From positions 14,996,861 through 15,060,860 of the forward strand of contig OZ316892.1 in assembly GCA_973895155.1 (NCBI GenBank): DNA of 64,000 nt. The letters run 5' to 3'. The position numbers were made by a program, and so were the translations under genes. Under the pieces are notes generated by a model that did not search any database, was not told the DNA's origin, and worked only from the letters and a program-made list of their open reading frames with translations. The first letter of the stretch is position 1, and each line of letters opens with the position of its first letter. Of the stretch, positions 2,874-64,000 are shown in pieces. The stretch is from Marsupella aquatica. Its lineage: Eukaryota > Plantae > Marchantiophyta.

Positions 2874-3974
2874 TGTGGTATCACTCGACCTGAGCACGTC
2901 GAACTTCTCTGCCTCCGAACTCAAGATGGAGATTGACAAATGGAGAACCGATCCTGCACTAGGATTGTAGTATGTCTCCCAGCCTCGAGTTTACTACGAG
3001 CCTCTCGACAATCTCCTTCGTCAAGAGAGTGTAGTGTTGAAACAGACCCACAAATCTGCTCCAGTTTATGTCCATGACTCTCCTAGTCTCATACCCTAAT
3101 CTGACTTTTCCTTGCCTACGTGTCACTGCTACCACTGCCCTTGCACTCCAATAATAGCAAAAGTCCTGCTCTCTCAAACTGAAACCTCCATGGACCCAAA
3201 CGTTTGACAAATTGCCAAGATGGACCAGCACAACCCAGATGGAGTACAAAAAATAATTCTTTGTACTCAGAAAGCACTATTCTTTTGTAAAAAAAATAGT
3301 AATTCTGGTCAGTGACCTGGTCTGCCCAGGCTGCAAGGTTCATGGGAGTGGATCCAAGCAACAACACGTACTTCCCCTGTTCCCCTCGGGCATCCTCGGT
3401 TCTTCATTTGAGGGCAGCCTGCCTGCAAAGCTGGGATACCTGTTTCATCGTCCCTCAAACGCGGCTTGACCCGGTCGGGACTTGAGGACTCCTAGAATGA
3501 GAGTGACCCTGCCATCCACTCCCAAATCTAAAACTTGAGGGCTGCCCTCAAGTGATGAAAGACCAAGATTACCTCCAAGAGTTTAGGAGATTTGAGGGTA
3601 GGGACCATAAACCTGGTTTGAGGGGTGATGAAATAGAGCCCTATTGTTAGAATGGAAAACTTGTAATACTTTAGACCTAGGTTCCATGGATGTGGCAAAG
3701 CAGGTACTAGGGGCTCCAAACATGTAAGGTCAAATGATATGGTGCAAGGTTGCAGCAGATATGGAGGGTGATAGAATATATACATACAAGGGCACAGCTA
3801 GGCTACCCAAATAATGTACAGTAATTGCACCAACCTTTGTATATTAACATTAAGATGACATTCATAATAGGGTGGGAGGCGGGATACCCAACCCCCCCTG
3901 CCCATTGTACATCGCTTTTAGGGGGCATTATGTGTGAATCAGGTGAGATGCGTCTTACTCAAGGAAGTGTTGGT

Positions 3975-4969: not shown

Positions 4970-5240
4970 GATCTTGCTGTGTTATCTTGGACATAACAGA
5001 ATATCTGGGATGCTAGGGAGGGAGTGTGTTGTGAAAGTTTAAGGGAACACATAGCTTCTTACAAACAGACCTTATGGCAGATTGACTTGAAAATTATTAG
5101 GTGTACAAAGATCTTGCTCTGTTATCTTGGACATAACATAATATCTGGGATGCTAGGGAGGAAGTGTGTTGTGAAAGTTTGAGGGAACACATAGCTTCTT
5201 ACAAACAGACCTTATGGCAGATTGACTGGAAAATTATTAG
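4970..5240. repeat. Near-identical tandem duplication, ~140-bp period, 2 copies
   Basis: GATCTTGCT.TGTTATCTTGGACATAACA...GAAAATTATTAG at 4970-5100 and again at 5110-5240. Confidence 0.9.
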
Positions 5241-7251: not shown

Positions 7252-10200
7252 ATGGGTACTGCATCAGCTCGTGTGGTCGTTTGGCGGAGTTTCTCTTCTG
7301 GAGCCTTACGGGGATCGAAGGGTCAGCAGCAGGTGAGTACTGATGTGACTAGAGGTTGCATCCTCCAGCTAAATTATGGTAGAGACCTACGCAAGTTACC
7401 TTTAGCAGGCATGGCTGTTCACCGAGCTTGTAAACTAAAATTGTGTGGAGGAAAGCGGGAGAGTTTGACGGATTTGCTCAATAAAACATTGATACGAAGG
7501 ACGAAGTATCTCAACGCCTCTGGATCTCTAGGGCAATTACAGCTTTGGAGTGTCGGATTCATTTCTCCATTACCACAGCGCAGATTGGTGGTCCCTGTTG
7601 TCTGTAATGCTCACAGCTTTTCCGCGGCTAATCACGGTCAAAACGGGGGAGCATTCGAGAAACACGCGGATATACCCGGTGCAGCAGCTGGAGGGGAGAA
7701 GAATCTTTTCGGTAGGGCGGATCGGTTGGATGTATTTTATGCCCAATTAGTGGGAATTCTAAGGGTAATTCTGTCCTTTTTGCCGCACGGAAGCTGGTGG
7801 GATGTCGGTGACGAGGAATTCGATCAGGAAAATACGACTTCGATCACTTTCAAGGATGCAATGTTGCGGCTTTGGGTGCTCATTTCTCCCGACAAATTAG
7901 TCATCGTGACGGCATTCATTGCCCTCGTCATCGCAGCTGTAAGTTTCGTGGAAAATTTGGTCGTCCATAAAGGATGTGATTGCGTAGCAGCACGGAAACA
8001 ATGGAAGGGGAGAATGCATCTAGCCCTGGTTTCTAACCAAGCGTTTGATATTGCCGTGCTCGTATGTTCACGATACCGTCGCGGGGCTATAGGTCTCAGG
8101 CTTCTTCGTGGTTTTAAAAGGAGTGTCGTAGCTCGAACTCATTTTCTCTCTACCCGTTCTTCCAGTTATCAGAGGTCACGATTCCACATTTCGTAGCAGC
8201 GACAATATTCGCAGCTCAAAGTGGATTGACGGAACAGTTTTACAGTAATGCAAAACTATTAGCTGCCATGAGCTGCACTTATGGTCTCTTCAGGTGAGTC
8301 AATAATTCGAGAGTAGGTAGCATCTTTGATCATTTTGCAGTTTGAAGACTCCTCATCAGCCACCGATGGATATATCCGAAGGTTGTTGCGTTTGCTCCTC
8401 CTGATGTAGCCTCAATTCAGGGTTTATACATATTTTTTCCCTACAGACTTTCACGTCCTGAGCCTTTGAATTGTCGTGAATCTTGGATACAGTGGGCTGC
8501 GTGGTGGATGTTTCGCAATTGCCAATCAAATATTGGTGAGATCAATGTTCGCTTTTATGGCAATTATGTCTGGTACATCTCTTCGTAGCTCAGTTTATCA
8601 CCTCCTTTATGTAGTGCTTGTGGTCTTAAGTTCATGATGTATTGGTGTAGAATCATCTCGTGGCTAACATCTTTACCTTTACACGGGTTAGGTCGTCAGT
8701 AAGACGCGCCTGAATTCCTTACTCAAGATTAAAGCAGAGAAAAACTCTGAAGATCTTCGTGGAATATCGGTGTTGTTGTAGATGAGGAGAATGAGGGAGA
8801 AACTTTTTACAAATTTGCTGAACCAGGTGTGGATCTCTACGAAACATTGAGATCAATGCCAATTATTATCGCCGATTATTAGTCTCAACTCAGTCAGAAG
8901 CTTTGAGATGTGTGCAATTGCCGAGAACAGAAAATATTGGCTTGTGCAACTAGTGGTTGTTCCCAATTCAAGACGTCAATAGACTAGTTATTGACAAGGA
9001 ATGGAAGCTTGTGTTCTCTAGAACGGTGATGTTTTCAATTATTTGTGTTATGGTGCGGTCTTCCGATCAGCTGGTTTGCTTGTTCCAAGGAAACTAGACG
9101 GTTAATATATCTCTTGCGGGTTATTTCCAGGACATTGTATTCTTTGACACAGAAGCAGTTGGAGCATTGACTAGCAGACTTGGGTCAGACTGCCAACAAG
9201 TTTCCCGCATAATTGGGAATGATCTCAATGTGATGTTTCGAAATGGTTTGCAGGTACTGTCTTATCATCTTGGGTTGCCTCTTGCTACGGGAATCAGGGA
9301 TCCAATAAAATTATTTCGGGACAGCCATTTTCCGGTTGTAGCATTTCGTACTGTTAGTTCATTAATCTGAGTGGCACCAGTATTGGCCAAGCAATCACTT
9401 CGATAGCTTTTCTCACTAGTAGAGCCACTTTGCTGAATGCTTAGAAGGTTGGTGCATAAAACTTTTAGTTAATCCAGTAGTCAGTTTTGAGTGATACCAG
9501 TGACATATAGTCGCTATTGCAATATTTCATCGAACGAGTGTTTTGCAAAGTGTTGAATGGGTGGGTATTGAAGCCCTTATGTTTTAAATGATGTAGGGTA
9601 TTGGAGCATTTGCCTATCTGATGACACTATCCTGGCAGCTGGCTCTCACTACTTTCACCATATGTAGTTTGATGTGGTCAATCATGAGGTTTTACGGAAG
9701 GTATACCTTTCCCTGATTCTTGTTTCGAGTGTTGAGGTCTCAGACTTCGTTCTGAACAGTAGAGCCTGAGCTATGTAAGTTTCCGAGGGGAGATCTAATA
9801 ATGATTGTGGTGTCGCGGTTAAACAGTGAAATCTGTTCCCAGATCTACTCAAGGGGAAGTTGTTAGGCCTTGTGTACGATCCCTATAGAGGTATATAAAT
9901 GTAAAGTTTCCTGTACGGATGTGTCTAGTGATCAGTCTTTGATCGTTCTTAATCTCCTCTGTGAAATTGCTATTGTACTTATATACATAAGATTGCAGTA
10001 GACATCCTGGAAGACATGAATACTGTGAATTTTTAGAGAATTTCGTGTCAATCCAAAATTGTGCACGAAGTGTGACGGAAACTTTCTGTGAGAGTCGTTC
10101 CCTAGGGCTGCACTCATTTTCTTGCAGGGTGGTCACATTCTTTACGCTTTATTTTACACTCACGCGTTGCTTGAGCATCGGAGTAGTATCCCATTTGCTC

Positions 10201-27344: not shown

Positions 27345-30579
<3,235 letters not shown>

Positions 30580-31082
30580 GTAGAAGGCTTGCTGTTGGCT
30601 CTATGCTAGAAGTACTACTCAAGCCGCGAAATTAGTTCCCCATAATTTGATTTGATTTTCCCCACATTTGTCTGAACTACATTTTAAAAATATTCTTTGC
30701 TGAATAGTGAAAACGAACAGATTCATCATTGGGACCCGCTACAGTCTTGTACTCAGTACTCTGTATCCCTGGATGGGTTATGGTGAGCCACATAATAGTC
30801 TTGTTACTGTGGCATGATCTAACAATAGAACAAAACCACACCAGGGTAATCTTTTGTGGCATGATCTAACAATAGAACAAAAGGCTCCACACCAGTGTCA
30901 TCTTTAAAGTTTTTACTTATCGGCCAGAGTGGCCTGTGTGTGTGAAGGTAAAGATGTTAGGAAAATTCTTTACCTGATTATTCTCAAATTATTTCCTGAC
31001 CCTTAGACCTCCCCCCTTGGGACCTCCCTAGATTTAAGGAGGGCATTTAGATTCTGGCCAATGGGGCCTATGACTATGTAGG

Positions 31083-31318
31083 AAACCTGATGGAACCTTA
31101 TCGGCTCATATAGCACACATACCAAACATATGGATCTAGATAGTACGATACACTCTAACACTACCTAGAATGGTGTGACAGCTGTCGTGTGCACACACAT
31201 CGCTACACAACATACATCGCTTGTCACATACATCCAAACATAGTCACACTGCCACATCACAAACACAGGAGAATGGAATACAAGTGGAACTCATGTCCAC
31301 ACATGTCCAAAACCCACA
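31083..31318 (-). repeat. Remnant of the Gypsy 3' LTR (outer part missing)
   Basis: Minus strand: PPT-like TAGGGGGGCG (31321-31330) followed by TGTGGG at 31318. Segment 31083-31180 matches 40145-40242. Boundary inferred. Confidence 0.65.
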
Positions 31319-31493
31319 ATCGCCCCCCTAGCTGGGAGTAAGGTCCCCTAACTCTAGCTAGCCATGAGTTCTACAAGGTTGATATACACCTTTTTAGGTG
31401 TGAAGATCAGGAGGCCAGGTGCAAGTGAGCCCCATCGATCACCTACCTACAATCCATATCTGCCAAGAGAACACAAATGATAACTAGTCGGCT

Positions 31494-31634
31494 TCACCGA
31501 CACTGAGGACACAACCATGATCCACTAGGAATCACCTGCAATGGTGGTGTCAAACATGACATGTGTCATCCTCTAGAACACTTATCACAAATCAACATAG
31601 TAACTGCTCCCTGAACAGATCCACACAACATACA
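31494..31634 (-). pseudogene. PHD finger (C4HC3) at the C-terminus of the Gypsy integrase
   Basis: CMLCGSVQGAVTMLICDKCSRG*HMSCLTPPLQVIPSGSWLCPQCR. All 8 ligands and the conserved W are present, with one in-frame TGA where TGG (W) is expected. Same frame as the integrase. Confidence 0.9.
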
Positions 31635-34522
31635 TTTCAAGCCAGCACGAACATGTGCCAAGCTTGGATCTATTGTACCATCAATGTTGGGAAGGTGACA
31701 TGGTACACAGTTGCACACATGATCCTTCCAAACCATACCATCGCGTCCCTCCAACATCAGGACACCAGAAGGCAACACTTCACGCACACGTAAGATTGTC
31801 CGGCCTGCGGTCACATCAAGTGTTGTGGGTGCTGTCTGCTGCAAATAAACATAATCACCAGGATGAAATCATCGAATGCTTGCACGGTAACCTCCTCCAT
31901 GAATAGTGGCATACCTCAAAATATCACGATGTTGGGCAATGGCAAGCTTGTCAAAAGCCATGGGCATCACTCTCTGAAATACCCGTGCTCTCTCTGAACA
32001 CACCTTGACCCAAACATCAGGATCATCCAAGTTCACAACTGGTGCAGCATCACGATGAATAGCTGCTGGCAAATCTGGCTCTCTACCATAGAGCAAAAAG
32101 TAAGATGAGAAGGATGCAAGTGATGCTTGCCGACTGAAATGATAGCCCATAGCTAACCAAGGTAGCTGGAGATCCCAATCTCCCAGATGACCAACCTGCA
32201 AGCCATACTTACGCAATCCTCTCTTCACAGTTTGCACAACTCTCTCAGCTAATCCATCTGTCCTAGGATGATCATGAGAGGTAGTACGATGATCAATCAA
32301 AGCTTGTTCACACAAACTCTCAAACTCTCCACGGAACTCAGTTCCCTGATTAGTCAACACCTCAGCTGGTGCTCCAAAATGACTGAGTCCGCGATCCAAA
32401 AATGTAGCAGCAACTCCTCCACTGGCTTTATCTGGCAACGCCACTAGCTCAATCCACTTGGAGAAGTGCTCCACCATAACCAAAACATACCGATTATGGC
32501 GTTGGATAAGAGGTAATGGACCAGCAAAATCCAAACTCCAACGATATCCCAAACCCATGATTGGTAACGGGTGCAACTGGGGAGTGGGAGCATTAAATGA
32601 TGCTCTCACTCTATCGCATACCACACACTTAGCTATCAACTACTAGACATGAGTGTGCATACCACGCCACCAATACTGTGTCTGCAACAAGCTATAAGTG
32701 CGCTTCACACCAAAGTGTCCCAACTCCTCGTGTGCATGTCGCACCAAATGTACTCGTTGTGATGGTTTTGGTACCACCAACACCCTATCATCATGCAGTA
32801 CTCTCAAAAGATGGTTTCCCTTCCATCGAAACCTCTTGGCTCTTTGTAGAACCCTATCACGTTCTTTGGCATCAACACTGCCAACAATAGAACCACTACG
32901 CAGATATTCCAATACTCTCACATCATTGTAAATATCTTGCTGTCCAAAAGTTACCTCACCAACATCCACATCTGAAGACTCATCATCCACTCCATCCAAT
33001 GAGGTAGAGTCCACAGATCCACTGTATGCTGGCACCCAACAAAGAAAGGCAGATGCATGTCATCCTGGCACCATCTCCTTATCTGACTCATCATGCCATC
33101 TGGCTCCAGTCTCATCCTGCTGACTGGTACATGGATTGCGGCTTAATCCATCTACATCCAAGTTCAATTTTCCAGGCCTATGCACCACCTGGAAATCATA
33201 CTCCTGTAACAACAATGCCCATCGTGCAAGCTTCCCTGTAAGCTTGTCAGACTCCATTAACCACTTAAGAGGCTGATGATCCACTCAAGGTGAAGGGGTT
33301 ACCAAACAAGTAGCAACGAAAGTGTGCAACAGCCCACACTGCTGCCAAACACTCTCCCTCATAAGAGCTATACTTAGCCTCTGCTGAATTGTTTGATCTA
33401 CTGGCATAAGCCACAACAAACTCATTCCCCTTGTCATCATTCTGAGTCAGCACTGCTCCAAGTCCTACTCCACTCCAATCAGTGTGTAGCTGAAATGGGT
33501 CTTCTCAAAATAGGGGATGATGCCAACCTTTGCTTCAACTCCTGAAAGGCATGCTCCTGGTCATCACCCCAAATCCATTCCTGATCCAACTTAGTGAGTA
33601 TGGTCAAAGGTTTAGCAAGCTGGCTAAATCCTTTAACATACCTCCTGTAGTAGCTCGCCAATCCCAAGAATGCACGAACTCTACTCACATCAGTAGGACA
33701 AGGAATTTGTGTAATGGCCTCCACTTTAGTCTGTTGTACACCCAATCCCCCTGGGTATATAGTGTGGCCCAAATACTCAATCTGGTCTTGGAAGAACTTG
33801 CACTTGCTAGGATGGAGCTTCAACCCATGTGCTCTCAATCTCTCCAACACAATCTGCAAGTGCTGCTGATGTTCTTCTACAGTAGAAGAATAGACCAAAA
33901 TATCATCAATATAACATCTGACAAAATCCAAACCTGCAAGGATTCGATCCATGACTCTCTGGAACTCAGCTGGTGCATTCTTCAACCCAAATGGTAAGAA
34001 TAACCACTGATACAAACAATCTTTGCCATAAGAATCAATTCCCCAGAATGTTGTCTTGGACCTGTCAGCATGCCTAATTGGAAGCTGATGGTACCCTGCC
34101 CTCAAATCCAATGAACTGAAAACCTTTGCATGCCCCACAGCATCAAAGATCTCCTCAGGTGTGGGCATGGCATATCTATCAGATTTTGTCTGGCGATTAA
34201 TGGGTCTGTAATCACCACACATGCGCCTATTTGTGTAATTGCCATGCAGATCCTTCTTGGCTGGCATCACTGTGGCAGATGCATACTCCCCATATGAAAT
34301 CTCCACCAATCCAGCCTCCAACAAATCTTGAGTTCTGCTTTGAATCAGAGCTCTCTCCATGTCACTGTAACGGTATGGCCTACGAAAGATTGGCGCATCA
34401 CTAGCCAATTCAATCTGAATACCAGGACCCTTTAATGTCCCCAAATCTTTCATGCTAAATGCAAAACAATTCCAGTAACTCTTCAAAAATCGATGCATGC
34501 GACGTCTCTCCTCCCCTGTCAA
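31635..34522 (-). pseudogene. Gypsy RT, RNase H and integrase, disrupted
   Basis: ORF pieces 33479-34522 (RT), 33265-33453 and 33060-33284 (RNase H, two frameshifts), 32643-33035 (integrase Zn-finger His half), 31869-32639 (core, with TDQG changed to TNQG), 31566-31844 (C-terminal part). Several in-frame stops. Confidence 0.92.
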
Positions 34523-34603
34523 CTTAGGGCCAAGCTATGGTTCCCAACTCTCCACCAAATCCCTAATATCTCTTTGTAGGGTAGAAGAGATAGCCGATGA
34601 TTG

Positions 34604-35890
34604 CTATTTAGCAATAGATTGAGCAGTCCCTTCCTGCTCAACAATCTGTCCAACCTTGGCCAATCCTGCCATAGGTCCATGGACTGTCTGCTCACCCCCA
34701 GCTGTGGTCAGTACTGTCTCAGTGGACCACAAGCTCACCAAGGGACAATCAGTAATTCCAGCAGAGCGCATCCGCAACTGTTCAGCTACTCCCAAGCTGA
34801 TAATCCAAGTCAAACAATTCAGGTCCATTGCTTGACCAAGAACCTGACGCCGTAAACCCTCTGACATAGAGGCAACTGCAGCGGTGCCAGTCAAAAATCC
34901 CATAGCACGCTCTCTCTCATCAGCAGTAGGTTCCACTAACTGCTGGAGAGTTGTGTCCCACACAAGTCCAGGGCCACCTGCTCTGAATGCATATGAAGCA
35001 GAGTGGCTTACAAGAGTGGGTAATGCACAACGTGGGCACCCAACTGCATTGACCATTGCCAATGGAGGTCTATCAGGTTGGGTCACACCCTGTGCACGAT
35101 GCCTTGGATCCAAAATATCATCCACCACTAAGGCTGGTGAGCGTGGAATGCTGTCAAATGCGCGCTTCAGCACCTCACATGGGATCAAATTAGTCCACCA
35201 CAAGCGTGGACAATGTGCACGAGAACCCACACGTGCAGCATCCAATAACATAGCAGGTCCAATCCAAGACCTCACCTGATGAACACTGGCAACAATCCGA
35301 CTACGATCATCACCTAACAATGGCACATTCTCCAAAATGTATGCTGGAGACTGTGTCTGATGTAGCTGGAGATTACGCAGCACCCATAACATCTCCCAAA
35401 ACAATGCAAAGCGTGGATCATGAAGTCCATGCCCAACGCCAGCTCTAGATTGGCCCTGACATGGCCAACCAGCAATCACCAAATCAATGGGGCCAACACG
35501 ATGCAGATGATCTGCCCCCAGCAATGAAATATCAGCAGGTAGTGCATGCTGATAACCACGAACAGCATCCACTGGCAGCAACTGTGGATATCTATCCACC
35601 AACATAGCCACATGTCGCAATGAGACCCTCCGTGCTGTCTCATCTGACTCCACATACAAATAACGACGCACAGGAATTCCTGCCTGAAGAATAGCAGCCA
35701 ATCCAGTGCTAATCCCACCAAAAAGATCCAACAAACAAATACCCTCCGGTGGATACTGCCAAGCAATAGGAGTGGTATCCAATGGTGAAAGAGTCACAGG
35801 TCCATCTACAAGAGGCTGCTCTGCTCCTGACTGTGGTGTAAAAGCATGACGCCATGCATCATGTACCAATCGTGCTGCTGTCTGTGGCAA
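34604..35890 (-). pseudogene. C5 DNA cytosine methyltransferase domain inside the Gypsy polyprotein
   Basis: Motif I LLDLFGGISTG, II YLYVE, III PADI, IV IDLVIAGWPCQGQSRAG, V LHDPRFALFWE, VI YILENV, VIII RAHCPRLWWTN, IX EPTADERERAMGF, X RRQVLGQAMD, in non-permuted order. The core domain spans about 34800-35740 and has no introns. Confidence 0.92.
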
Positions 35891-35905
35891 GGCCTGTGCA
35901 GTGCC

Positions 35906-38404
35906 TCACACTGGTGGCACAACACTGCCAACAGGTAATCCTCGCATGATGTGCTCCTTATGAGACTCCTCCAATGGTGGAACATCTGCTGCATGCGCAT
36001 TACCCTCAATCAAATCATCAGGTCCAGCAATTAGACTAGTGAATGCTGCCAAAGACAATGGTGTGGATTTAGGGCCTCCCACAGGTCCACTAAATCTCAT
36101 TGGCAATTTTCTCAATCGAGCATCTCCTGACTGCCAATCAGGTCTATATGACACTGATTCCTCCCAAAAATCAAGAATAAATCCCATGGGGTAGAGCACT
36201 ATACATCCCACCAACACATCATATGACTCTGCCTTAGTTAGAATAGCTCGCGCCTGTATCTGTGAGCTATCTGTGGTATGACCTTCTTGAATCCTCAAAT
36301 CAAGAGGTCTCTTGGTAATGTGCTATGTAGGTGTAGGTCCCCCTAATGAAGTCTGAATGGGAAAGGGACAATCCTCCAAATCCTCTGGACGCATTCCCAA
36401 TCCACGTATGGCAGATTTTCCCAACATCAAGGGTTGAGCACCAGTATCCAGTAACACCCTCTTTGGCTGGTATACTGCTCCAGAAGGCCCAACTAATCGG
36501 AAGATACCACTCCGATTATCCAATGATACAACACTAGGTTTAAACCTAGTCCTCTCAAATGCAGGGCGTGCTGATAAATCCACCAACCTCGCTGCTGCTG
36601 CATGCCATGTCTCACTAGTAGCAGTAGATGGCATGGTCTTCATTGCATCAACACTGCAAGTTGCTTCTCCATGGGAAGCAACCACTGGAGTGTCCTCACA
36701 GAGTGTAGCTGCCAATCTGAACACTTCTGCAGGACCAACTCCCAAGTTCAGCATGTCTGTCGCTGAAAATAATGGGGCGCGTACCATGGCAATAGCCGCC
36801 CCCAGCAAGGTACCTGTCATCCCTGCTACATCACTACCTGATTCTGCCAACTTACTCACATCAGGATTTGTCCAAACCGGGTTCATAGAGGTAGTCTGAA
36901 CTGTCTCTGACAATGTAAAAGACTGAGGAAGCTTTGTCTGCCGACGTGCATCCCCCCTTTGTGGATCTAACTCCACTACTGCTCCTCGGGGCTCAAGAGC
37001 TTTGGCTGCCCCACGTGTCAAAGCTACCAATGCATCAATATGTGTAGTGCCACACATGAATCCCATGGTGGCAAGGTCTCCATCAGCTCCATAAGATGTG
37101 GAAGGACCATGGGATGTGGAAGGTCCATAGGATGTTGATGCCCCATCACCAGAAGTAGGTCTCACCTGGGAACTAGCCATGGCAGCTAGCTGTTGCTCCA
37201 ATTGAGCAATCTTAGCATCCTTTGGATCTATGGTTACAGCAGGGGCAGCGTCACCTCCTTGTCTCCTTGCATGTGGCATGCCACGACCACGTCCACCGCC
37301 TCTACCTCCTCCTCCTCTTCCCTGATCATGTGTACGGGATCCTCCTCTCCGTAACTCAGGATGGAGTGAGAAACACCTATCCTTGGTGTGTCTAGGAGCT
37401 CCACAGTGATCACACTATCGCTGATCAGGCGCTGATGCTCCCCCTGATCCTCTATGATCTGGGCAATATCTCTGTGCATGATCCCTACCACAGGTCCAAC
37501 ATCTTGATTGCTGTCCAGCATAAGAGGGCACAGGTCTCTGGCTGGTAGACTCTCGTGCAGTAGGCTTCTTCCTCTGGCTCTTCCGTGCAGTAGGCTGTGG
37601 TGTGGATGTGGATGCAACCTTTGGTGCTTCCTTGGCAAATCCAGAAGTCACCACCTTCTCATTCACCATATTGAGCTCAATGCGCTCAGAAAGTGTAAAA
37701 ACAACTGCTAATGTGGGATCTGCATCCCTAAGCAGAGTGACATCTCTCACTCTGCGTCGCAATTCTCTGTCCAGAATTGCATACCAAAATTGGACTGCTT
37801 GAGCCTCTGTCACTCCCTTGGTGACAGTGATCAATCTGCGCATACGAGTGTATGCCTCACGTAGACTCTCTTCAATCTTGCGCTGGAACTCCTGAAGACC
37901 CTTCAACTTATTAGTTCTTACACCCTGATATTTTTGCTTCAGTACCTCAAAGAATTCCACCACAAGATTAAATACTGGCGCAACTCCAGTTTCTGTCACA
38001 ATCACACCGGCAGGAGTAGCGGTGGATGTTGCTGGAGTGCTGCTGGTGGATGGTGTGCCACTCTGGCTAGTGTTGCTAGAAGAAGCAACACCTGTGGTAA
38101 TGGGTTGGGCAGCCGCACTAGTGCCATAGGTGATGGACACGTAATTAGGCGACCAATGTTGCCTCCATGCCTCAATCTCAACCAAATGAGCCTTCCAAAA
38201 CTCATGGTAGTCATCCATGGGTGGCCCCTCCAAATGCTGAAATAATCCCTTCCATGCCATGAAAGGGGTAAACAATGTGGCGTTACGCAATGTCTGCATA
38301 TCTCACCACGTATCAAACTCCTGGATGAAGTCATCCAGATAAATCGTGTCAACTGCATCAGAGTATCGTTGTGGGCCCTTTGTAGCCCCGTACATCTCGT
38401 CCAT
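35906..38404 (-). pseudogene. Gypsy Gag and aspartic protease, disrupted by point stops
   Basis: ORF pieces 38303-38596, 37415-38299, 36323-37279 and 35906-36298 are all in one frame. Two Zn knuckles, an RG-rich linker and the DTG protease motif. First ATG after the LTR is at 38404. Confidence 0.85.
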
Positions 38405-38584
38405 ATCCCACAACAAAGGTGCAACCACCTGATGATGAGGAGAACTGGTCACTGAGTCCTCATCAGAATCACTGTCTGAAGTTGCACTGCTGACTGCTAC
38501 CAATGCCGCTGGCCGAAACTGTGCCCCACTCCGAGTGAAATCGGTCCGTCGTCCATCGGGTAATCCAGCAGCACCAGAAGAATC

Positions 38585-40242
38585 TGTGGTGACCAATCCT
38601 AACCTAATCTATGTGCTAACCCTAAGGGCAATCTATCCCTATCAGCACCACAAGCACTCACCATGGTGTGTTGAGCATCACTCCAACATCACAAGGAGAG
38701 AAATACACAGCACACTAAAATGTCCAGTTGCAAACCCGGATCACTCCTATGGAATCAAGCGCCCACACCGAACCAACATGGCGCATAAACAGGAAACAAG
38801 TGTGGAGAGGATCCAATCAACAAGAATAGTTAAACACTAACTCTCCACACCAAGAGTGATCACACATTGATCAAACAAATATTCATAATGTTCAATGAAA
38901 GGCCTTCATAATAGGCTTCATGATTTCTCAACGTTATAGATGAGAAACCATGCACAATTGGTTCAATCTGTGTATTTAGATGAACTCAGAACTATCAAAA
39001 ACCTCTAAAGAGCCTCTGATTTGGCCCGAAATAAGGTTCTAAGCAAATCGGAAAGTGTATAAAACTCCCTGGCGCTTGAATCTAAACAACAAGTTGTGAA
39101 AACTTGTGTGTACACAAGGTGGGATGAGAACTTGCCAGTTAAGTGCTTGCGGTTGGGAATAGCCCCGGGATGGGTGACCTCCTCGCACTCGATCTCGTGC
39201 CTCCCCTTTGCGCTCACGACCCGGAATAGCCCCGGGATGGGTGACCTCGACCTCGCGCCTGCTTGCGCTTGCGATGGGTGACTTTGCGCTCACGACCCGG
39301 AATAGCCCCGGGATGGGTGACCTCGACCTCGCGCCTGCTTGCGCTCGCGATGGGTGACTTTGCGCTCGCGGTTGGGAGCACTTTCGGGGTGGGTGACCTC
39401 ACGCGTTGCCTTATGCGCGCACAGTTGTGTGTGTACACAAAACATAAGTTGTTGGGCTCAGAAATGGCAACATTTGCCACTTGAAAGCAGTGATTTCCTT
39501 CACAAAAACGGCAAGTCGATGGCTCTTGACCTCTGCAAACCTGTCGCGCATGGTTCTAGGATATTTCACGAGCGTCCCTTGACAATAAAACGCTGCGAGC
39601 ACTCAAAATTCCAACAGATCTGTCCACAAAACAGCAGTGCGATACAAGCAGCAACCTTCGGCCATCTCTTTCCAGATCCAGATCTAGACTCCGACTCAAT
39701 CCAGATCCAGATCCAACAACGTTCAAGCTTGGCTAGAACCAGATCAAATAGCAACAGAGTACTCAAACAATAGAACCAACGATTCAAGAAACATGAATTC
39801 GCGTCAAACACAAATCCAATTGATTCAAGCTACCACGAACCGTCACCGTCAACGACAAACTCAGACTGAGCTTCTGTCCGCACAACAGAGTTTGAAGCTC
39901 ATGATCTTTCAATGTAATCTCCATACAATCGGCACAACAATCCCGGTCAACAATACCCCATCGATCCCGCACCGATCCGATCACACACGTATGTCAAGCC
40001 AACGCACCTTGCACTACTCAAGGAATCCACGTTACACAAGCGGAGCTCACAGCCACCATAGCCACTCAAGCTCCTCTCTCTCCAAGGCTCAACATTGAAA
40101 GATGACCTTTCAATGCCTCACAAGTGAGAAGTACCCTCTCACACAAACCTGACAAAACCTTATCGGCTCATATAACACACATACCAAACATACGGATCTA
40201 GATAGTACGATACACTCTAACACTACCTAGAATGGTGTGACA
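38585..40242 (-). repeat. Gypsy 5' LTR (first ~138 bp missing)
   Basis: Ends ...CACCACA at 38585 on the minus strand, inverted-complementary to the TGTGG start at 31318. Shares 98 bp with the left LTR remnant, is non-coding and contains a CpG-rich tandem array. Boundaries inferred. Confidence 0.6.
39157..39400. repeat. CpG-rich tandem array (~67-76 bp period, 3+ units) inside the Gypsy LTR
   Basis: GAATAGCCCCGGGATGGGTGACCTC recurs at about 39157, 39224 and 39300, with a partial fourth unit. Confidence 0.9.
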
Positions 40243-43200
40243 TCTTCCCCTCAACCCGGTCCGGGATGGGAGATTTCCACTTGTCAATATGGGAGTCCTG
40301 AGAACTCTTCCCCTCCTTTGATGATCTGGACTCATTAAAGGACACATCTCTACTGACAATTAGCCTACAGGTTACTGGATCCCATAACCTATAACCCTTC
40401 ACACCTTTCTGATAGCCAAGGAAAATGCACTTCTTCAACTTGGACTCCAGCTTGGATCGAAGCTGGGAAGGTGTAAGCACATAAGCATCACATCCAAAAA
40501 TCCTCAGATGTGAATAATCTGCTGGACGCCCGTACCTCATTTCAAATGGCATCTTGACTCCAATAGAACTGGATGGAGAAAAATTTATCAAATAAGCTAT
40601 AGTATTGACAGCTTCAGCCCAAAACTCATGTGATAAGCATGATTGACTCAACATACTCCTTGAGCGGTCCAATAGTGTTCGGTTGAGTCTCTCAAAAACA
40701 CCATTCTGTTGAGGAGTATAACTTGTTGTGAGATGGCGGGTAATCCCCTACTTCTTACAATACGTTCCAAATTCCCCGGAATTGTATTCACCGCCGTTAT
40801 CCGATCAAAGATATTTCACCTTGTTACTAGTCTGATTCTCAACTTGAGCTTTCCACTCCTTAAAAGTGGTAAAAATATCAGACTTATTGTGTAGAAAGTA
40901 TATCCACACATACTTTGAGTAATCGTCTATGAACGTGACATAGTATAACCGTCTAGAATGTGAGGGAGTAGGGGCTGGACCCCACACATCACTATGTACA
41001 TACTCAAGTACCTCCTTGCTGGTGTGAGTTCCAATTCCGAAGGGTTTCCTGTGCTGCTTCCCTAGCACACAGTGCTCACAAAATTCCAACTTACAAGATT
41101 GCAAATTAGAAAGTAATCATTTCTTCTGAAGAATAACCAAACCTTTTTCACTCATGTGGCCCAAACGGAAGTGCCACAGCCGGGCCGTCTCCTCATGAGA
41201 TAAGATTACATTGGCTTCATCACAAACTACACTGCCCTCCAAAACGTATAGATTGCTATGTCTCTTTCCCTTCAATACAATTTTAGTATTAGTTAAAACC
41301 TAAAGGACACCATTAGCAGAACTCCACTGATAGCCATTTGCTTCTAAAACTCCAAGTGAAATGAGATTTTTCATCATGCTGGGAATATGTTTCACATTCC
41401 TCAACGTTCTTATAGCACCATCAAACATCTAAAATCTTACAGATCCAAGTCCAACAACTTGACATGGGATTCCATTTCTCATCAACACTGACCCGTTGGA
41501 AACCGTGTAAGAACTGAAAAAATCTCTCCTAGAGCAAATGTGAAAAGTACATGCACTATCTAGAATCCAATCATCACTACCTGGATTTGACACTACGTTG
41601 AGAGCATAACCTTGACATCACAATATGTCATCATCATAGAGTAAATCTACCTCATGCGAGCTCGATGCCGTGTTAGCAGATGCAGTAGGGACCTTTACTC
41701 AATAATCTCTTTTCATGTGGCCAGGCTTGCCACAATTCCAACATGCAAGAGGCTTCCTCTCTTGCGATTTCCCTCTGGATTTAGATCTCCCTAGTGATGT
41801 AGATCTAAACCTGTTCTGTCCATTTGAGCGCTGCGCTGCGCTGCTCTCCCACGGTTCACATTCAGCGTAGTGCCAGAAGAAGATGCTGTCTATGATTGAC
41901 CCAACTTCTTCTGAGCATCATCAAACAGCAAGGAGCTCACCACCTCATTATACGAAATGGACTTCAGATCTCTATACAAGAGCACCTATTTCAAGCCCTG
42001 ATATGACGACGGTAAGGAGCTTAGCAGAAGCAAGGCCTTATCCTCATCTTCAACTCCTTTTCCCAGGTTTGACAAATCCACCGCTAGACTGTTAAACTCA
42101 TCCAGGTGATCCTGCATCTTGCTCCCTTCCTTGAGCCTGAGGCTCATCAAGAGAGACTTCTTGTACAGCCGGTCTGACGCATCTTCCCGGTAGTACTTCT
42201 CTCTAAGGGCCTTGAACAGTGACACGCAATCTGCATAATCATCCAGCTGCTTGATGATGTGCGGCTTGAGATATAGCATCACTGCGTTGACAACAATCAC
42301 TTGCTCTTGTCTCCACTATCTCACAAAAATCTCCTCCTCTCCATCATACTGCTCTTGCGAAGAAAGCAGATGAGCTAAGCCCATGGCCCGAAGGACACCC
42401 TTCACTTGCTTCTCCCACAGCAAGTAATCAGTACGACCATCGTACTTCTCCACCTCAAACTTCACTCCTCCAAATCTAGCCATCTCCCTCTTCTTTCCAA
42501 CTACCGATAGCTCTGGTAGTAACACAACTTCCTCCACTACACGCCGCACCGGTGATCGTACCGGTGATACTAGTTCTTCCTCAAACAGTAGCAGCTCCTC
42601 CTCAGACTCTCCGTCTGACCATCGCGATCCTGAAGCTCCACCGACGCCAATTCTTCGAGTATCCTCCGAGTCACTCATATGAAACAGTCACGAAAACACG
42701 TCTTTTTTCGAAACTTCTCACAAAACTCAAAACTCAACACCGCCGCGTAGCCCACAAAGCTAGGAGTCCAGTACTGAAAGCCAAAATAAAAATAAAAATT
42801 TGACGGAAAAGTTATTCAAATTTCGGTCGGGGTGGGTAAAACCTTGGGAAATTCCCCCGTTTTGGACCACCTCAGAGAATAACCAAAATACCCAGTACAA
42901 CCCATCGTCGGAATTGTGATGTGATCGATGCGCCGCGTTGCTAACTCCAGTGGCAACGTCCTTGCCGAAAAAGAACCAAAAAAGTTACCGTTCTGCGGAC
43001 GGAATCTTTGTTGGACGGCCAAAAAATAGCTCTCTATTTCTTGGGAATATTCCCGCACAATACAACAAGTCTCACAGGGGACCGTTCCCCTTGTCGGAGC
43101 GGTTAAAATGGAGGGCGGCAGGCCCGGCTCCAAGGACAACCAAAGGAGAGGAAAAAAGCTATAAACTGAAACTACAGGTATGACAAAAAGGCGCATCCGC

Positions 43201-44742
43201 GTATGGGCGATGCGAGGCGGGCCAGGGAGTATTACCGTATCGGGCCGAGCATATACAAAGGAAAAACAAGGAAAAAGGAAATTTAACAGCACCCTAAAGG
43301 GTGTGCAAAGGCCCCTTAAAACTAAATACACCCTGTATGGGGCCGCGTACGTGGACGGGACCGAAGGGGGTATGGCAGGGCCTGTACCCGGGCGGCTGCA
43401 TACGCAGCCGCGTATTCGCAAAAGGGCCGGAGGGAGGAATGGGGCGGGACCGGCAGCATGCCCGGAAGGAGTCGGGGCCGTGAGGGCGCGAGCCGGCGTC
43501 TCGCGAAGGCAGGGACGTCGGACGAGAGGGGAGGTGAAGGCCGGGGCGTGCGCCGGCCGGCGCTGCGGACCCCGCCTGAAAATTGGGGTGCGGGGGGAAG
43601 AGGGGGGACGCGAAGTGAATACACGGGGGCGGGAGGTGGTGTGTGGGTACACACACAAGGGCCCAATAAAACCCCCCTTAAAGCGAAAAAGCTCCCCTAG
43701 AAAAAAAAGAATGTAAAACTCACTTGAAAAGCCGCTGTTTCCAACGAGAAATGTGAACGCCGCCGACGGAAAAAGTTGCCAAATTGTACTGGCACAGTCT
43801 GCAGCTCTAGCAGAGTAAAAAATTTCCGCCGCGTCGCCTTCACTCCGCATCAAGTGCCAATCCCGGGCTCAAAACGACCGCCTCGCCGCGATCAAACCGT
43901 TGAGCCGTAGCACTTCACGTTTCTTCCACCGAGTCGGACGTCATGAAGAGAAATCCGGTTCAGATGTGAACAAGCTCCATAGCTTGTGAAAAAACCTGAA
44001 TGCCTCCGTCACTCATCACGTCTCACTCGGTAACAACTCGACAGCAATCCAGCTACCGAAACGACCAGATCGCTTCAACCTTCAACTTGAGCTATAATGT
44101 GCGATCCCTCTCGCACAGCATAACTCATACCGTTGAAAAATGCGAACTCTGGTCTCTCCCCCAAAAAGCCGTCAAACACGAATAAACCCTAAACGATGCA
44201 AACTTCAATTCCTCCGCACCACGGATACCGATCAGCGAATTCTAACCACCGTTAGAAAGCCCTCTCACTAACCTACCCGCTCAGCCACACACATTCGAGT
44301 TTCATGCGACGAAACTCCGAATGTACCATCAACAATGAACGCTGGAAAAACCGTCATGAAAAAACCTCGTCACCTCCCAGGCATGCTCTGATACCACTTG
44401 TTGAGCATAGACAACATTCGTAACAATAAGCCCATGAACCATCCAACGCACAATAGTCGACACAGAGAGATACGTGGTTCACCTCCACATGAGGCTACGT
44501 CCACGGGAACACACAAGAGCTTTACTGCACTCTAGGCCGACCGGCCATCCCAAGCATCCAGAGCACAAGCTCTTCTTATCTCTCAACTAGCTCCGTAATA
44601 ATGAGCCTAAGTTCCACCAGGGTCTGGCATCAACCCTGGCTATATACACAACAGCACTACCGCTAACATTAGCTAAGTCCTAACCCGAGTTAGACTAACT
44701 GTGGTTAGCTCATGAGTCACAAGACTAGAGCAATATCTAACA
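40243..44742 (-). mobile_element. 3'-truncated Ty1/Copia retrotransposon (LTR, PBS, gag, PR, INT; RT/RH/3' LTR absent)
   Basis: LTR 44399-44742 (TG...CA). Gag from 42678 (VEKYDGRTDYLLW), knuckle CWNCGKPGHMKRDY, protease WILDSACTFH, LWHFRLGHMSEKG, integrase YVHSDVWGP, FWAEAVNT and KKCIFLGY. The PR-INT order marks it as Copia. Many stops; homology ends at 40243. Confidence 0.92.
44385..44396 (-). other. Primer binding site for initiator tRNA-Met
   Basis: TGGTATCAGAGC on the minus strand, 2 nt from the LTR end at 44399. Confidence 0.9.
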
Positions 44743-59415: not shown

Positions 59416-61305
59416 TTACTTTCGTCGTCTCTTCGGAAAACCAGCTGTGCTGTCTTCTATCTCACTCTTGGCCTCTAAATCGGATGTCGCCCTTATAATC
59501 ATCTCCATTTTCCGCCGATACTCGTCATGTTCTTCCCCGTCTTGAAGTTTTGAATAACTAATAATTCTCCCGTTTGCTTGAGTCCCACTTTCATCTGAGA
59601 AATTGCTACCACCAGCACAGTGAGTGTCTACCAGTTCTTCGGGTATGTCTAAGCCAGGGTACAGCATCCTGAAGTTTCCCGTACTCAACCCGAACTTGTT
59701 GGCGTAGGATAGGAATGTTTCTCGTGCCGTGCTGCCACCTAGTGTTTGCGCTCGTTTTTGAAGGTCGGCATGAAAAGCATCAAATCTCATCCTCATTGTG
59801 TCCGACAAATTAAGCAGGTGCCACCCATTGCGGCCTCCAGCAACGTGCCATTCCCGCAACAACTCCCGCACGACATTCTTCGCCCTTTGGATTTCAGCAT
59901 TCGCTCGACTATCTTCGATGACCATAGCATCCTTCTCCGTTCGCTGTCTCGTGTGGCCAACTTCAGTCATACCAGTGCGAATTCCAACTGGCGGCAACCG
60001 CCCGAAATATTGGTATAAAAGATCAGGAAATGGCTTCCGACACATGCAAATTACACTGGCTGCAAAATGCTTCCAGAAGCAATGCACGTGATACTGACAC
60101 TTGCAAAATCCAAGAGTCACGGTTGGAAGCACGGTGAGATCTTCTTGGCACAGGGAGCAACTCAAAGCTGACGCGATACGATCCCTTGTCTGCTGCAGCT
60201 CGGAGATCTGCGCTTGCAGCACCTCTGTCGAACTTACTTCAGCTGCGATCCTTTGGTTTTTCTCAATCTCTAACGCAGTCCTCAATTGCGCAATCTCCTC
60301 GCGATCACGGCATCCTTCAATGTGCATCTTCGTCAAATCGTCTTGCCTATTAGATTCAACTGCCATCCTCATACACTTCTCTTTCTCTAACTCAGTTTTC
60401 AACCGCAAAATCTCCTCGCGATCGTGAAATGCTTCGCTACGCATCCTGTTTAGATCATCCTGCCTCGTGATTGTAAGACCAGCCTCGTACAAGACACGTA
60501 TTCCTCCAAGTAAATTTGTTTTGGTTTCTTCATTTTCATCGACTGCCAAAGTAGCTGTTGTACCTTGCTGGTGCCCGTCAGTGCCGCCTCGTTTGCCCCC
60601 GGTGCCTTGGACCTTTGAAATAGGTGATGTGCCACGCCTTCTCCTCCTCCTCTCTTCCCGGAGGTGCTTCCTCGAATCAACAACACCATCACTCGTCCCA
60701 GCATTAATGGCCTCACGGGTCACTCGTTGCTCTGATACCAATCGTGAAGATACATCCACCGTTTCCCAATCTATATGGATGCCTTTCCTCTCGAACCACA
60801 ACATCCTCATGAAGTTCCTCCGCAACTGATTAAATTTCACACCACCTTCTCTCCCTCCCTTGCACATGTTCCTCCACCGTCTCCAGTTCTTCTTCATCCA
60901 AGGATCCGTGCAGTGAAGCTCGATATTGAACTTACCTGAATCCCAAGCTCGTTGGCTCATGCCTGGACCGAACAAAGGTTTCAGGCAATCTTGGTTATAA
61001 GGAAGTTTCATAGCGTCCTCAAAAGCCAAAGGTCTTCTAGTCGTCTCCAACTTAACGCGAGATGGAGGCAAGTCATTCTCTACACACATCATCGCCAGTT
61101 CCTCGACTCCTTCGTCCCCTTGTGAGGGAGATGGATCCGAAGGCAAAATTTGCTCCGCACTTCCATATGGGTCTTTCACGGACTGGATGGTATCGCTGAT
61201 TTCCTGTCGGGTGGCTAGTCTTGCTGTCTCATTAAGTCCGGGAGTAGACTCCCGGCTAGCCTCTTCCATTCCGGACATTGAAACATTTTCACTGGAGCCA
61301 GCCAT
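59416..61305 (-). CDS. Intronless 629-aa protein with coiled coil and RING-like Zn finger; function unknown
   Basis: Uninterrupted ATG-to-stop ORF. Basic NLS-like RRRRRR, a duplicated 39-aa helical unit (RQDDL...), then CSLC...CKCQYHVHC...CMC, and a C-terminal PKRRRK. Confidence 0.7.
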   Translation of the reverse strand: MAGSSENVSMSGMEEASRESTPGLNETARLATRQEISDTIQSVKDPYGSAEQILPSDPSPSQGDEGVEELAMMCVENDLPPSRVKLETTRRPLAFEDAMKLPYNQDCLKPLFGPGMSQRAWDSGKFNIELHCTDPWMKKNWRRWRNMCKGGREGGVKFNQLRRNFMRMLWFERKGIHIDWETVDVSSRLVSEQRVTREAINAGTSDGVVDSRKHLREERRRRRRGTSPISKVQGTGGKRGGTDGHQQGTTATLAVDENEETKTNLLGGIRVLYEAGLTITRQDDLNRMRSEAFHDREEILRLKTELEKEKCMRMAVESNRQDDLTKMHIEGCRDREEIAQLRTALEIEKNQRIAAEVSSTEVLQAQISELQQTRDRIASALSCSLCQEDLTVLPTVTLGFCKCQYHVHCFWKHFAASVICMCRKPFPDLLYQYFGRLPPVGIRTGMTEVGHTRQRTEKDAMVIEDSRANAEIQRAKNVVRELLREWHVAGGRNGWHLLNLSDTMRMRFDAFHADLQKRAQTLGGSTARETFLSYANKFGLSTGNFRMLYPGLDIPEELVDTHCAGGSNFSDESGTQANGRIISYSKLQDGEEHDEYRRKMEMIIRATSDLEAKSEIEDSTAGFPKRRRK

Positions 61306-63521
61306 TGCTCCAAGAAAAATTAGAACAGCGCTAAACTTTGGTCATCGACCCGCATAGAGAGTAATCGCAGGAAGTAAGCGATCACCTCTTTGCAGTTCGT
61401 CGACTGATCTTGCGATAAGATCGGTAATTGCCAACTCCCGGAAAATTTCATATAGGGATAAGCCCCGAACTAAGAACACCGGAAAGGCCAGCACACGTAG
61501 CCATTCAAGAAAACTTATTTCATGGAAGATTGAGGCGCCTCCTCCACAATACTAGACTTTATTTACGGGTACATTTGCTCCAGACTGGCCGAGGTGGGAG
61601 CTCGTCTGCTGAAGATTTGAGGCCTGAACAAATCCAAAAAAACACATCAATTAACAGCACTACAGTCGTGATGCAAATCAGAACATATAAAACAGAAAAT
61701 AGGGTTTGCTAACATGTCGTATCTTCTAAAGAGGACAGAGCAATCCAAACAGAGTGATCGAATCACAGTAGGTATTTGAAAGCTCCAAAGTTGGTGTTCC
61801 TGACGCACACGAAAGGAAATCGCACATACTCTCTGATCCAACTGTCTGTCAAATGAGAAAGAAAAGAAGACCACTATTATCAAACTACATCTACCGCTTA
61901 GAGCTTTCTAAGTGCAAAAACAGCACACATACATCCCTACTGCCATAACGTCTCTCTGCTTAGATAAGGTAGTCAATGGCGACCGCTCAGATGGCAAACA
62001 CAATCGCAGTCAAGGCCAGGTCCACTACCGTCTTGTTCTGCATTCTTGCAACTCTCTGAGCCAATAGGAATCTAAGAACCCCACCAGAAGTGATTTAAGC
62101 AACAGATACTAAGTCATCGTCCTAACATAAAATCATCAGCTTCAACTATCACCAGAACATGCAATACTGCAACAACTCCAACTCGTCTAGCTCAATAGCA
62201 GGTGATGGACCATAGACAAGCCTGATCTCCTGTTGAGACCAGAAAACGAGATCGAAAACGGACGAGAGAAGAGATGACAAAAATTGAGTTACTGCAAATC
62301 AATGCCTATTAATACCAACGAACAAAGTAATAATAACAATGAAGAAATTTCTTGACTCTTCATTAGAATACTAATCAAGGAATTGGTTGACTCTTCACAC
62401 CAAAAGGTGAAACTAAAACTTAAACTCCTTGCTTGCCAACAAAAGATGCAGAACAGAACATGATTGATTCACTCCTACTGCTGGACGAGAACTGAAGAAT
62501 ACCTCGGTTCCTTCTTTCTTTACATAGAAACGTAAATTCATAGACTGAGAGACGTGTAGAGTATAGACACCCCAGAACACAGAAAAAATGAACAACAACA
62601 TAGGCCAACCATCAAGTGGATTCGATTTCCATCATCCCAACACGATCCAGCTTGTATATAATCTTTACCCACGATACCTCAACCCGCACTCAGGAGAAGT
62701 GACAATTCCTTGTTTCAACAACGATGTCAAAGCAAACAAAAAGGCATTCATCCTATCAACCACGGAGGACCGACCTCAACAGTGAGCGAAGAAGGGCAAG
62801 AAAACCCATCCCAGCGACCAGCCGCAACACAAGATGTCCCACAGATTTTCCGAGCATCGAGACGGGAAAAAGCATGAGGAATGATAGAACAAGGGCCAAA
62901 CCTGGATCTCTGCCACTCCGAATCGCAGCCAATCGACGGCATAGCGCCGTATTCTTAAAAAATCAAAGAATTGCCAGAACAGTAGTGACGCAGGTACAAA
63001 CTCTTTCGCGGGAAGTAGTACTGTGCCTACCACTGTCGTCAGTCATGAGATCGCCGCAGCATATACACTTCGTCATACATACTTCTTGCCTCAAATCTTG
63101 CCGGAGAAGTGAGAGAGAAGAGCCCCTGAAGGGGCCAAGGCAGAGAACACAAAAATCGACAGCCAGCAGCAGCAAGTCTGGTTCTGGGCGAGCATCTTAT
63201 GATCAACACAGTTGAGGAGCTCGTCAGTACTCAACCGGACTCGGATTCCTGCATCTTTCTCAACAGCTTCATTGATTAAAGAAGTACGCCACTCGACGGT
63301 CTCGGACGATGAGCGGGGCCGGGCAGGTCTTCCGCTGGAGAGCGCCATGCCACGGCGCCCTCAAGAAAATGTGTGATTTGACAGCCATCGCTGTCGACCC
63401 GTATAGGTAAGTTTGCTAGGACAGGTCTCATGTTCAATTGATTCCCCGTCCTCGCACACAGGGCGCGGAGAACATTCCCACCACTCTACATTAGCCTCAA
63501 TGCCCGAGCTCTGCTGCTCGT

Positions 63522-63772
63522 TAATAGATGGTGACTACTAACAATGTTTGTTTCCAATTCCACCCTTGAGCATAAGTGTGCCCCTAATATATGGTGACTA
63601 CTAACAATGTTTGTTTCCAATTCCGCCCTTGAGCATAAGTGTGCCCCTCATAGATGGTGACTACTAATTATGTTTGTTTCCAATTCCACCCCTGAGCATA
63701 AGTGTGCCCCTAATAGATGGTGACTACTAATAATGTTTGTTTCCAAGTCCACCCTTGAGCATAAGTGTGCCC
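63522..63772. repeat. Tandem repeat, 4 x 63 bp
   Basis: Units start at 63522, 63585, 63648 and 63711: TAATAGATGGTGACTACTAACAATGTTTGTTTCCAATTCCACCCTTGAGCATAAGTGTGCCCC. Confidence 0.95.
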
Positions 63773-64000
63773 TCCTATATTCTGTAGTAGTAATCATTTC
63801 TAGTACACTCTCCTATTCTCCTATTCTCATAATCTGGTGCCTGCAAATATATAGCAGTAGTCAAATTCCAGACAGGATTTTGGGTACGATAACCAAGATC
63901 AGGGCAGGGTCTTAGAATGCAAGCCTGCTGCCTGAATGTTGAAAAAAAGCTTACCGCCTGCTGCGAGTCAGTTTATTCTCACATTCCGGACGTACTCTTA

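Follow-up and report, generated by a model that had tools for sequence, protein, structure and literature searches.

A dead Ty3/Gypsy retrotransposon in Marsupella aquatica carries a DNMT3-type methyltransferase domain and belongs to a bryophyte family with a recurrent stop codon ahead of the reverse transcriptase

A stretch of 64,000 nucleotides from the liverwort Marsupella aquatica (contig OZ316892.1, positions 14,996,861 to 15,060,860 of the forward strand; here called the window) was analysed, in which a Ty3/Gypsy retrotransposon occupies positions 31083-40242 on the minus strand and carries a C5 cytosine methyltransferase domain between its protease and its reverse transcriptase (RT). 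An initial annotation, made from the sequence alone, had placed an intronless methyltransferase between the DTG of the protease and the YIDD of RT, and translation confirms this. The Gag, protease, methyltransferase and RT pieces lie in a single frame that is interrupted by six in-frame stops, at 38305, 37417, 36325, 35908, 34606 and 34537. The same annotation regarded the pieces as separated only by such stops; the shared frame from Gag to RT holds, whereas the stop at 34606 is conserved among relatives and is not decay.

The features follow the Ty3/Gypsy order Gag-PR-RT-RNaseH-INT, and all coordinates given here are on the minus strand. Translation places Gag with two zinc knuckles at 37373-38404, with decay stops at 38305 and 37417 and a true start possibly further upstream. 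The aspartic protease (36130-36480, DTG at 36448, decay stop 36325) can be aligned in relatives and matches PF13650 weakly, under the cut-off. The methyltransferase domain of 322 amino acids lies at 34802-35767, with PC at 35464-35459, ENV at 35332 and the Arg position of H-R-x-R at 35212. The frame of Gag, protease and methyltransferase ends at 34598-34606 with UAG followed by CAA-UCA. In frame with this stop is RT (33482-34534, YIDD at about 33913; PF00078, E 1.4e-34). Downstream of RT two frameshifts and further stops are found. RNase H (33180-33490) was read by three-frame translation across frameshifts near 33480 and 33281, and other copies have an insertion at 33281, as seen in contigs of public sequencing runs. 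The integrase (31635-33059; PF17921, E 5e-11; PF00665, E 1.5e-11) comprises an H2C2 zinc finger, a core and a C-terminal part, with decay stops, and its C-terminus is formed by a PHD finger at 31494-31634, recognised by its Cys/His pattern and holding one internal decay stop; in the Marchantia relative P0158 the PHD finger matches PF00628 with E 4.4e-9. Contigs of four public runs (25,525, 11,607, 8,408 and 923 contigs, with the adjoining Copia piece counted) span the entire element. The M. aquatica copy is dead, given its decay stops, its frameshifts, the loss of its 3' end and the replacement of a conserved Arg by Cys.

The initial annotation had predicted a match to PF00145, and the frame 34604-35905 gives one with E 2.3e-8 and 34.3 bits, over a cut-off of 22. 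The motifs FGG, WPCQ, ENV, RLWWTN, ERERAMGF and LGQAM follow in unpermuted order without introns. A PDB sequence search returned DNMT3A/B/C as best matches (E 3e-9), with DRM at 6e-3 and weaker and HhaI at 0.45; the corresponding profile search gave E 2e-10 for DNMT3A/B/C versus 6e-6 for DRM. An AlphaFold model of the domain from an alignment of 93 sequences reached a mean predicted local distance difference test score (pLDDT) of 95.6, and this model was used for Foldseek, where all 33 rows listed were DNMT3A/B/C (best E 4.8e-19, identity 20-22%). An earlier model built from 19 sequences (pLDDT 50.7) was not used. We rejected an identity as DRM, CMT or MET1, given the unpermuted motifs, the lack of chromo and BAH domains and the weak PDB matches. 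By sequence and by modelled fold the domain is thus assigned to the DNMT3 type, as had been suggested from its motifs.

Relatives were collected from several sources. A search for long proteins gave 66 relatives, 15 of them named Marchantia and one Sphagnum fallax. A search for proteins of near-equal length gave 173; among the 120 listed, Calypogeia (5), Marchantia (5), Sphagnum (3) and Riccia (1) appear, and no vascular plant name occurs among these 120. One relative, P0094, is annotated as a DNA cytosine methyltransferase from a bacterial metagenome bin; it lies on a 2.4-kb contig and is likely misbinned plant DNA. Scanning metagenome contigs with a single protein as query gave no relatives; an alignment-based scan gave 128, and locus-level results rest on the best 80 of these. 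In the 80 loci the order Gag-protease-methyltransferase-RT-integrase-PHD is kept wherever the pieces are present. The main clade of loci shares its linker behind the methyltransferase with Sphagnum fallax P0034 and was therefore taken as peat-moss DNA. A profile search returned 372 clusters at E < 1e-30, and 30 family proteins checked included five from Closterium, one from Klebsormidium nitens and one from Marchantia. Viral contigs gave only 15 weak partial matches (26-43% identity), which indicate no viral source there. On this sequence evidence we regard the family as widespread in liverworts and peat mosses and not as a one-off capture.

The comparison of RT and methyltransferase trees, which the initial annotation had proposed, was made with FastTree on 64 elements holding both domains. 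Both trees, which are unrooted and without host DNMT3, show the same split by architecture, with two changes each for three architectures. In a quick unrooted tree, open at its base, the window, Klebsormidium and Closterium rows fall on one side of a 96% branch from a group in which RT comes first. This group, with the order RT-RNaseH-DNMT-integrase-PHD (P0037, P0041, P0052, P0208, P0281 and about 45 more Gypsy polyproteins), takes its own side in both trees, and its hosts are likely algae. The protease-methyltransferase architecture itself was also seen in zygnematophyte algae, in the Closterium proteins P0237, P0239, P0246, P0252, P0277 and P0491; some Closterium models stop after the methyltransferase domain and others continue into RT. 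Locus L080 also holds, at 2549-3441 on its minus strand, a further methyltransferase-RT element that is only distantly related (38% identity) and oppositely oriented.

Conservation was measured on catalytic columns and on the ratio of nonsynonymous to synonymous substitution rates (dN/dS, Nei-Gojobori), using loci with a near-complete single-piece domain (methyltransferase 40, Gag 20, RT 22 and integrase 17 of the 80). The catalytic Cys is kept in 40/40 loci and the Glu of ENV in 39/40; in 92 diverse proteins the numbers are 90 and 91. In 38 pairs of the M. aquatica copy with main-clade loci, the methyltransferase has a dN/dS of 0.175; the values for Gag, RT and the integrase against the same clade are 0.21, 0.11 and 0.10. 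Together with the constant order in the 80 loci, these ratios agree with the initial proposal of a native domain, and they point to purifying selection on the methyltransferase.

The stop at 34606 differs from the others. It reads TAG CAA TCA (34606-34598), a sequence that conforms to CAR-YYA, by which tobacco mosaic virus signals read-through (as given in the text of PMC2194720). A locus was testable if both the methyltransferase domain and the RT start were present, which holds for 51 of 80; in the other 29 the RT start is off the contig, deleted or unmatched. A stop followed by CAA lies 21 codons ahead of RT in all 51 testable loci, 50 in register and one shifted by one base. The contexts are TAG-CAACCC (31 loci) and TAA-CAACCC (16), with TAG-CAACCA (L003), TAA-CAACCA, TAG-CAACTC and the shifted one found once each. 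For comparison, CAR follows 44 of 902 ordinary premature stops, and stops matching the five other window stops were seen in 0, 0, 0, 4 and 0 of 36-68 loci. The linkers measure 267, 324, 366 and 444 nt in four lineages (the window, the main clade, L003 and L057), with the frame kept in all. The closest relative, P0067 (80%), is open across two other window stops and ends at the residue of 34606. First-frame proteins of Marchantia, Calypogeia and Klebsormidium terminate 14-87 residues past the domain (85 in Marchantia P0001 and P0002, 14 in Klebsormidium), those of a further clade 91-176 residues past it; over the whole first frame, the window copy is 55% identical to P0001. These alignments indicate that the stop at 34606 is a conserved feature and not decay. 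The enzyme had initially been described as one domain of a single polyprotein with RT and integrase; this part of the description is not supported, since the conserved stop parts the enzyme from RT and assigns it to the Gag-protease frame. A long RNA stem is predicted 3' of the stop in all four lineages, with z-scores of -0.55 to -2.13, or -0.65 to -2.84 against synonymous recodings (14 sequences), and covariation contributes only -0.31 kcal/mol; we take the stem as a weak hint and do not count it as evidence.

The ends of the element are not standard long terminal repeats (LTRs), so that of the initially described architecture the Gypsy domain order stands and the type of ends does not. The 5' repeat A1 (39915-40242, about 330 bp) starts with TGTCA, and its inner end is set by a joint 31319-39915, found in contigs of 4/4 public runs and representing the A-B joint of other copies. 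At the 3' side, a polypurine tract (31320-31333; the same G run stands ahead of B in relatives) is followed by repeat B1 at 31183-31319, which is 72% identical to the B repeat of L068 (E 2.9e-6) and has the joint and loose contig ends at both borders. A 10-bp palindrome at the B1-A2 junction (31177-31186) is the same in L005, L013 and L068. Repeat A2 (31083-31180) is cut after about 100 bp, and the remaining A2 and B2 are missing. A 101-bp end repeat (31083-31183 and 40145-40245, 94%) is accordingly the A half of a split repeat and not an LTR. In relatives the 5' end consists of A, and the polypurine tract is followed by B-A-B at the 3' end, with the palindrome at the B-A junction; B-A-B is complete in L013, L040, L068 and L080 and cut by the contig end in L005. 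Instead of two identical LTRs, copies show A...B-A-B or A...B alone. TG..CA ends are found in relatives, and among eight two-ended insertions the 4-bp target duplication is exact in six and carries one mismatch in one; the remaining insertion has an eroded 5' end. Four copies (L030, L033, L039, L047) have A at the 5' end and a single B at the 3' end, without a terminal repeat and flanked by 4-bp duplications; such copies may be products of B-B recombination or artefacts of assembly collapse. A two-LTR-circle model was dropped: it predicts A-B-A at 5' ends, and none was seen among the 5' A repeats examined. No tRNA primer site was seen after A1 on inspection by eye. With split ends of this kind, LTR finders would likely miss the family. 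Split direct repeats A...B-A-B are known from PAT/Ngaro-type DIRS elements, which use a tyrosine recombinase. The ends are alike, whereas the present family has a DDE integrase, TG..CA ends and 4-bp target duplications. Troyka elements were rejected as a match, having CG..CG ends and a 3-bp duplication and occurring in animals only according to the text of PMC12440569, versus TG..CA, 4 bp and plants here.

The domain order, the DNMT3 fold, purifying selection, the conserved stop with its CAA, the split repeats and the 4-bp duplications in relatives are directly supported, and on them we build the following reading. Probably, the element is a dead member of a Gypsy family of bryophytes in which the first frame encodes Gag, protease and DNMT3 ahead of a leaky conserved stop; output of the enzyme would then equal that of the capsid protein, and its likely substrate would be new complementary DNA (cDNA). 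Ribosomes would mostly terminate after Gag-protease-DNMT3, and occasional read-through at 34606 would yield RT, RNase H and integrase-PHD; we consider this step likely. Being made with Gag, the enzyme would be present in many copies per particle, where the protease would free it. De novo methylation of the cDNA, likely at CG and before or at integration, is for us an evenly balanced proposition, and copies so treated would arrive pre-silenced or resemble host DNA. The PHD finger may steer integration by reading histone H3, and the split repeats would allow the ends to be rebuilt, the palindrome at the B-A junction being the putative attachment site of the integrase. A still wider picture is doubtful: a streptophyte-wide lineage would pack an active DNMT3 at capsid stoichiometry by means of a leaky stop, insert already methylated cDNA by way of a palindromic junction of split repeats, lacking true LTRs, and direct it with the PHD finger; its Marchantia copies would add a so far unrecognised source of de novo methylation to the enzymes of the host.

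Several observations weigh against the reading of a leaky stop with a capsid-level DNA methyltransferase. Most of the 51 loci represent a single family, and some are the identical insertion in different assemblies; because copies are kin, the independent count is the four lineages named above. L057 has its stop at the corresponding place in a context that is off the motif by one position, and the main clade reads CAA-CCC, not CAR-YYA, with an in-frame ATG two codons past the stop. When the window frame is aligned directly, no more than 15 of 39 loci show a stop at 34606 or up to 3 residues away from it, which follows from linkers that differ in length and align badly. P0204 and P0227 have the domain fused to RT without a stop, and other relatives have it between RNase H and integrase; capsid-level dosage is therefore not needed in all lineages. 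One contig of run X1 bypasses the entire domain (joint 34674-35965), so a deletion derivative exists. In the M. aquatica copy, Cys stands in place of the first Arg of H-R-x-R, which 87 of 92 diverse relatives retain. The dS values behind the low dN/dS are 1.5-1.9, near saturation, and for comparisons inside the main clade the ratio is 0.42-0.57, which is what decaying copies should give. Finally, the Klebsormidium domain gave no methylation in yeast, a result that its authors call inconclusive and that human DNMT3B shares in that system (text of PMC5890265).

These points leave room for other explanations. The enzyme and family might be the same with RT-integrase made separately, by re-initiation, an internal promoter or splicing. 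The main-clade ATG just mentioned would serve re-initiation, a promoter lies between gag and pol in Candida Tca2 (at their junction, as stated in PMC2194720), and six plant gene models connect the domain to RT. The ATG is absent, however, in the window, L003 and L057, and the frame is preserved whichever of the four linkers is present. Each of the six models bypasses the stop at a point of its own, a pattern that resembles predicted introns rather than one splice site and makes conserved splicing across the stop unlikely. Overall we consider separate production of RT-integrase unlikely. Somewhat less remote, though still improbable, is an enzyme that acts in trans on host chromatin or on integrated copies, for self-limiting silencing or insertion-site marking, and not on particle cDNA. 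High first-frame dosage would permit this, and such roles were raised in the discussion of the 2018 paper (PMC5890265). Observed/expected CG is 0.33 in the element, 0.46 in the neighbouring Copia fragment and 0.66 in the rest of the window, with CHG about 1.0 throughout. The depletion fits heavy CG methylation from the element or a host enzyme; host MET1 explains it equally, and the Copia fragment is a single control element. Fusion to Gag would moreover place the enzyme in the particle.

The yeast result and the low identity to DNMT3 would also suit a domain retained for binding of DNA, RNA or S-adenosylmethionine, or for RNA methylation, rather than as a working DNA methyltransferase. Against this, 87-91 of the 92 diverse relatives retain the catalytic Cys, the Glu and both Arg residues, and the related Symbiodinium DIRS enzymes methylate CG according to the text of PMC5890265; we judge the idea quite improbable. 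A one-off capture of a host DNMT3 cDNA by the M. aquatica copy, or a nested insertion, can be refuted with near certainty: order and spacing are the same in 80 loci and in Marchantia, Riccia, Calypogeia, Sphagnum, Closterium and Klebsormidium, the RT and methyltransferase trees are congruent, dN/dS is about 0.18, and nothing was found in its favour.

A precedent in Klebsormidium had been pointed out in the initial annotation and is confirmed by KnitGypsy-Dnmt3 of K. nitens, described in the text of de Mendoza et al. 2018 (PMC5890265) with Gypsy domains, an intronless unpermuted DNMT3, DIRS-like repeats and Ka/Ks < 0.2. The present element shares the intronless DNMT3 in a Gypsy context, the DIRS-like repeats and purifying selection (0.175 here between subfamilies, with dS near saturation); the host is a land plant instead of an alga. 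In the wording of that text the enzyme belongs to the Pol frame, whereas here a conserved stop separates it from RT. The K. nitens protein GAQ93235.1 (P0275), which we infer to be a KnitGypsy-Dnmt3 copy, matches with 35% identity over 324 residues (E 8e-54); its domains follow the order Gag-protease-methyltransferase, and it likewise ends 14 residues past the methyltransferase, so that the published Pol wording may cover the same layout. The text describes the capture as specific to the K. nitens lineage, with a species table that has Physcomitrella and Selaginella without Marchantia or Sphagnum, and a PHD finger is not mentioned there. It also describes SymbioDIRS-Dnmt3, whose enzymes methylate CG de novo, and SymbioLINE-Dnmt, which likewise carry C5 methyltransferases in other retrotransposon classes. 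EpiLTRs are retrotransposon-borne too, with a DNMT4-related enzyme accompanied by DAM and a chromodomain; in its available text this preprint names 'streptophytes (Gypsy-DNMT3)' once and gives no land-plant example (bioRxiv 10.64898/2026.05.21.726589). Stop-codon read-through between two frames is described in PMC2194720 for Moloney murine leukaemia virus (gag-pol) and SIRE1 (pol-env). The in-frame stop is alike in these and in tobacco mosaic virus; here it stands after protease and methyltransferase and before RT, and read-through is predicted.

In the literature searched, only these two sources (PMC5890265 and the preprint) mention Gypsy-DNMT3, and the texts of PMC6317226, PMC10508981, PMC6453930, PMC8226300, PMC5784723 and PMC11982613 contain no such element; the text of the plant LTR reference survey (PMC6317226) mentions neither methyltransferase, PHD nor Marchantia. 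No report of a land-plant Gypsy-DNMT3 was found in this search, with subscription journals, Repbase and the Marchantia genome paper outside its reach. The element is a variant of the published KnitGypsy-Dnmt3 kind, probably a land-plant branch of the Klebsormidium-type DNMT3 Gypsy elements; its conserved putative recoding site, its split ends and its PHD finger were not found described in the literature searched.

Why a transposon carries its own silencing enzyme has been a question since 2018, and the sole Gypsy enzyme tested gave no result. Marchantia polymorpha, a genetic model for which methylation mutants exist, has family members whose first frame is open and which are annotated as hypothetical proteins; the text of the methylome paper (PMC5784723) counts five host methyltransferases there. 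With these members, activity, read-through and cDNA methylation become directly testable, and a definite expectation for the dosage of the enzyme follows from the conserved stop.

Several features surround these subjects. The leader of the element holds a 76-bp tandem repeat (39156-39400, minus strand), and the region 38900-39870 has far sparser contig coverage from other copies than the coding part and varies among copies. Adjoining the element is a Copia fragment with gag and integrase (40243-42315, minus strand; PF14223, PF00665, PF25597), which is not part of it and into which the Gypsy element was likely inserted. The fragment is cut within its integrase, and the RT half is missing beyond the far side of the Gypsy element; one deletion therefore likely removed it together with the Gypsy 3' end. 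The land-plant origin of the DNA, assumed in the initial annotation, is borne out by a neighbouring UBP26 exon, which places the host among the leafy liverworts: its identity is 88% with Calypogeia fissa, 54% with Marchantia and Riccia and at most 52% with all other matches listed (120 of 170). A host gene at 28768-30600 (minus strand) with a WW domain and an RNA-cap methyltransferase piece, presumably TGS1-like, begins roughly 500 bp beyond the truncated 3' end of the element. Long open frames without a Pfam match lie at 59416-61341 (minus strand, 641 amino acids), 6988-8196 (plus strand, 402) and 42816-43868 (minus strand, 350), and tandem arrays of 63 bp and 140 bp at 63461-63835 and 4970-5240, respectively.

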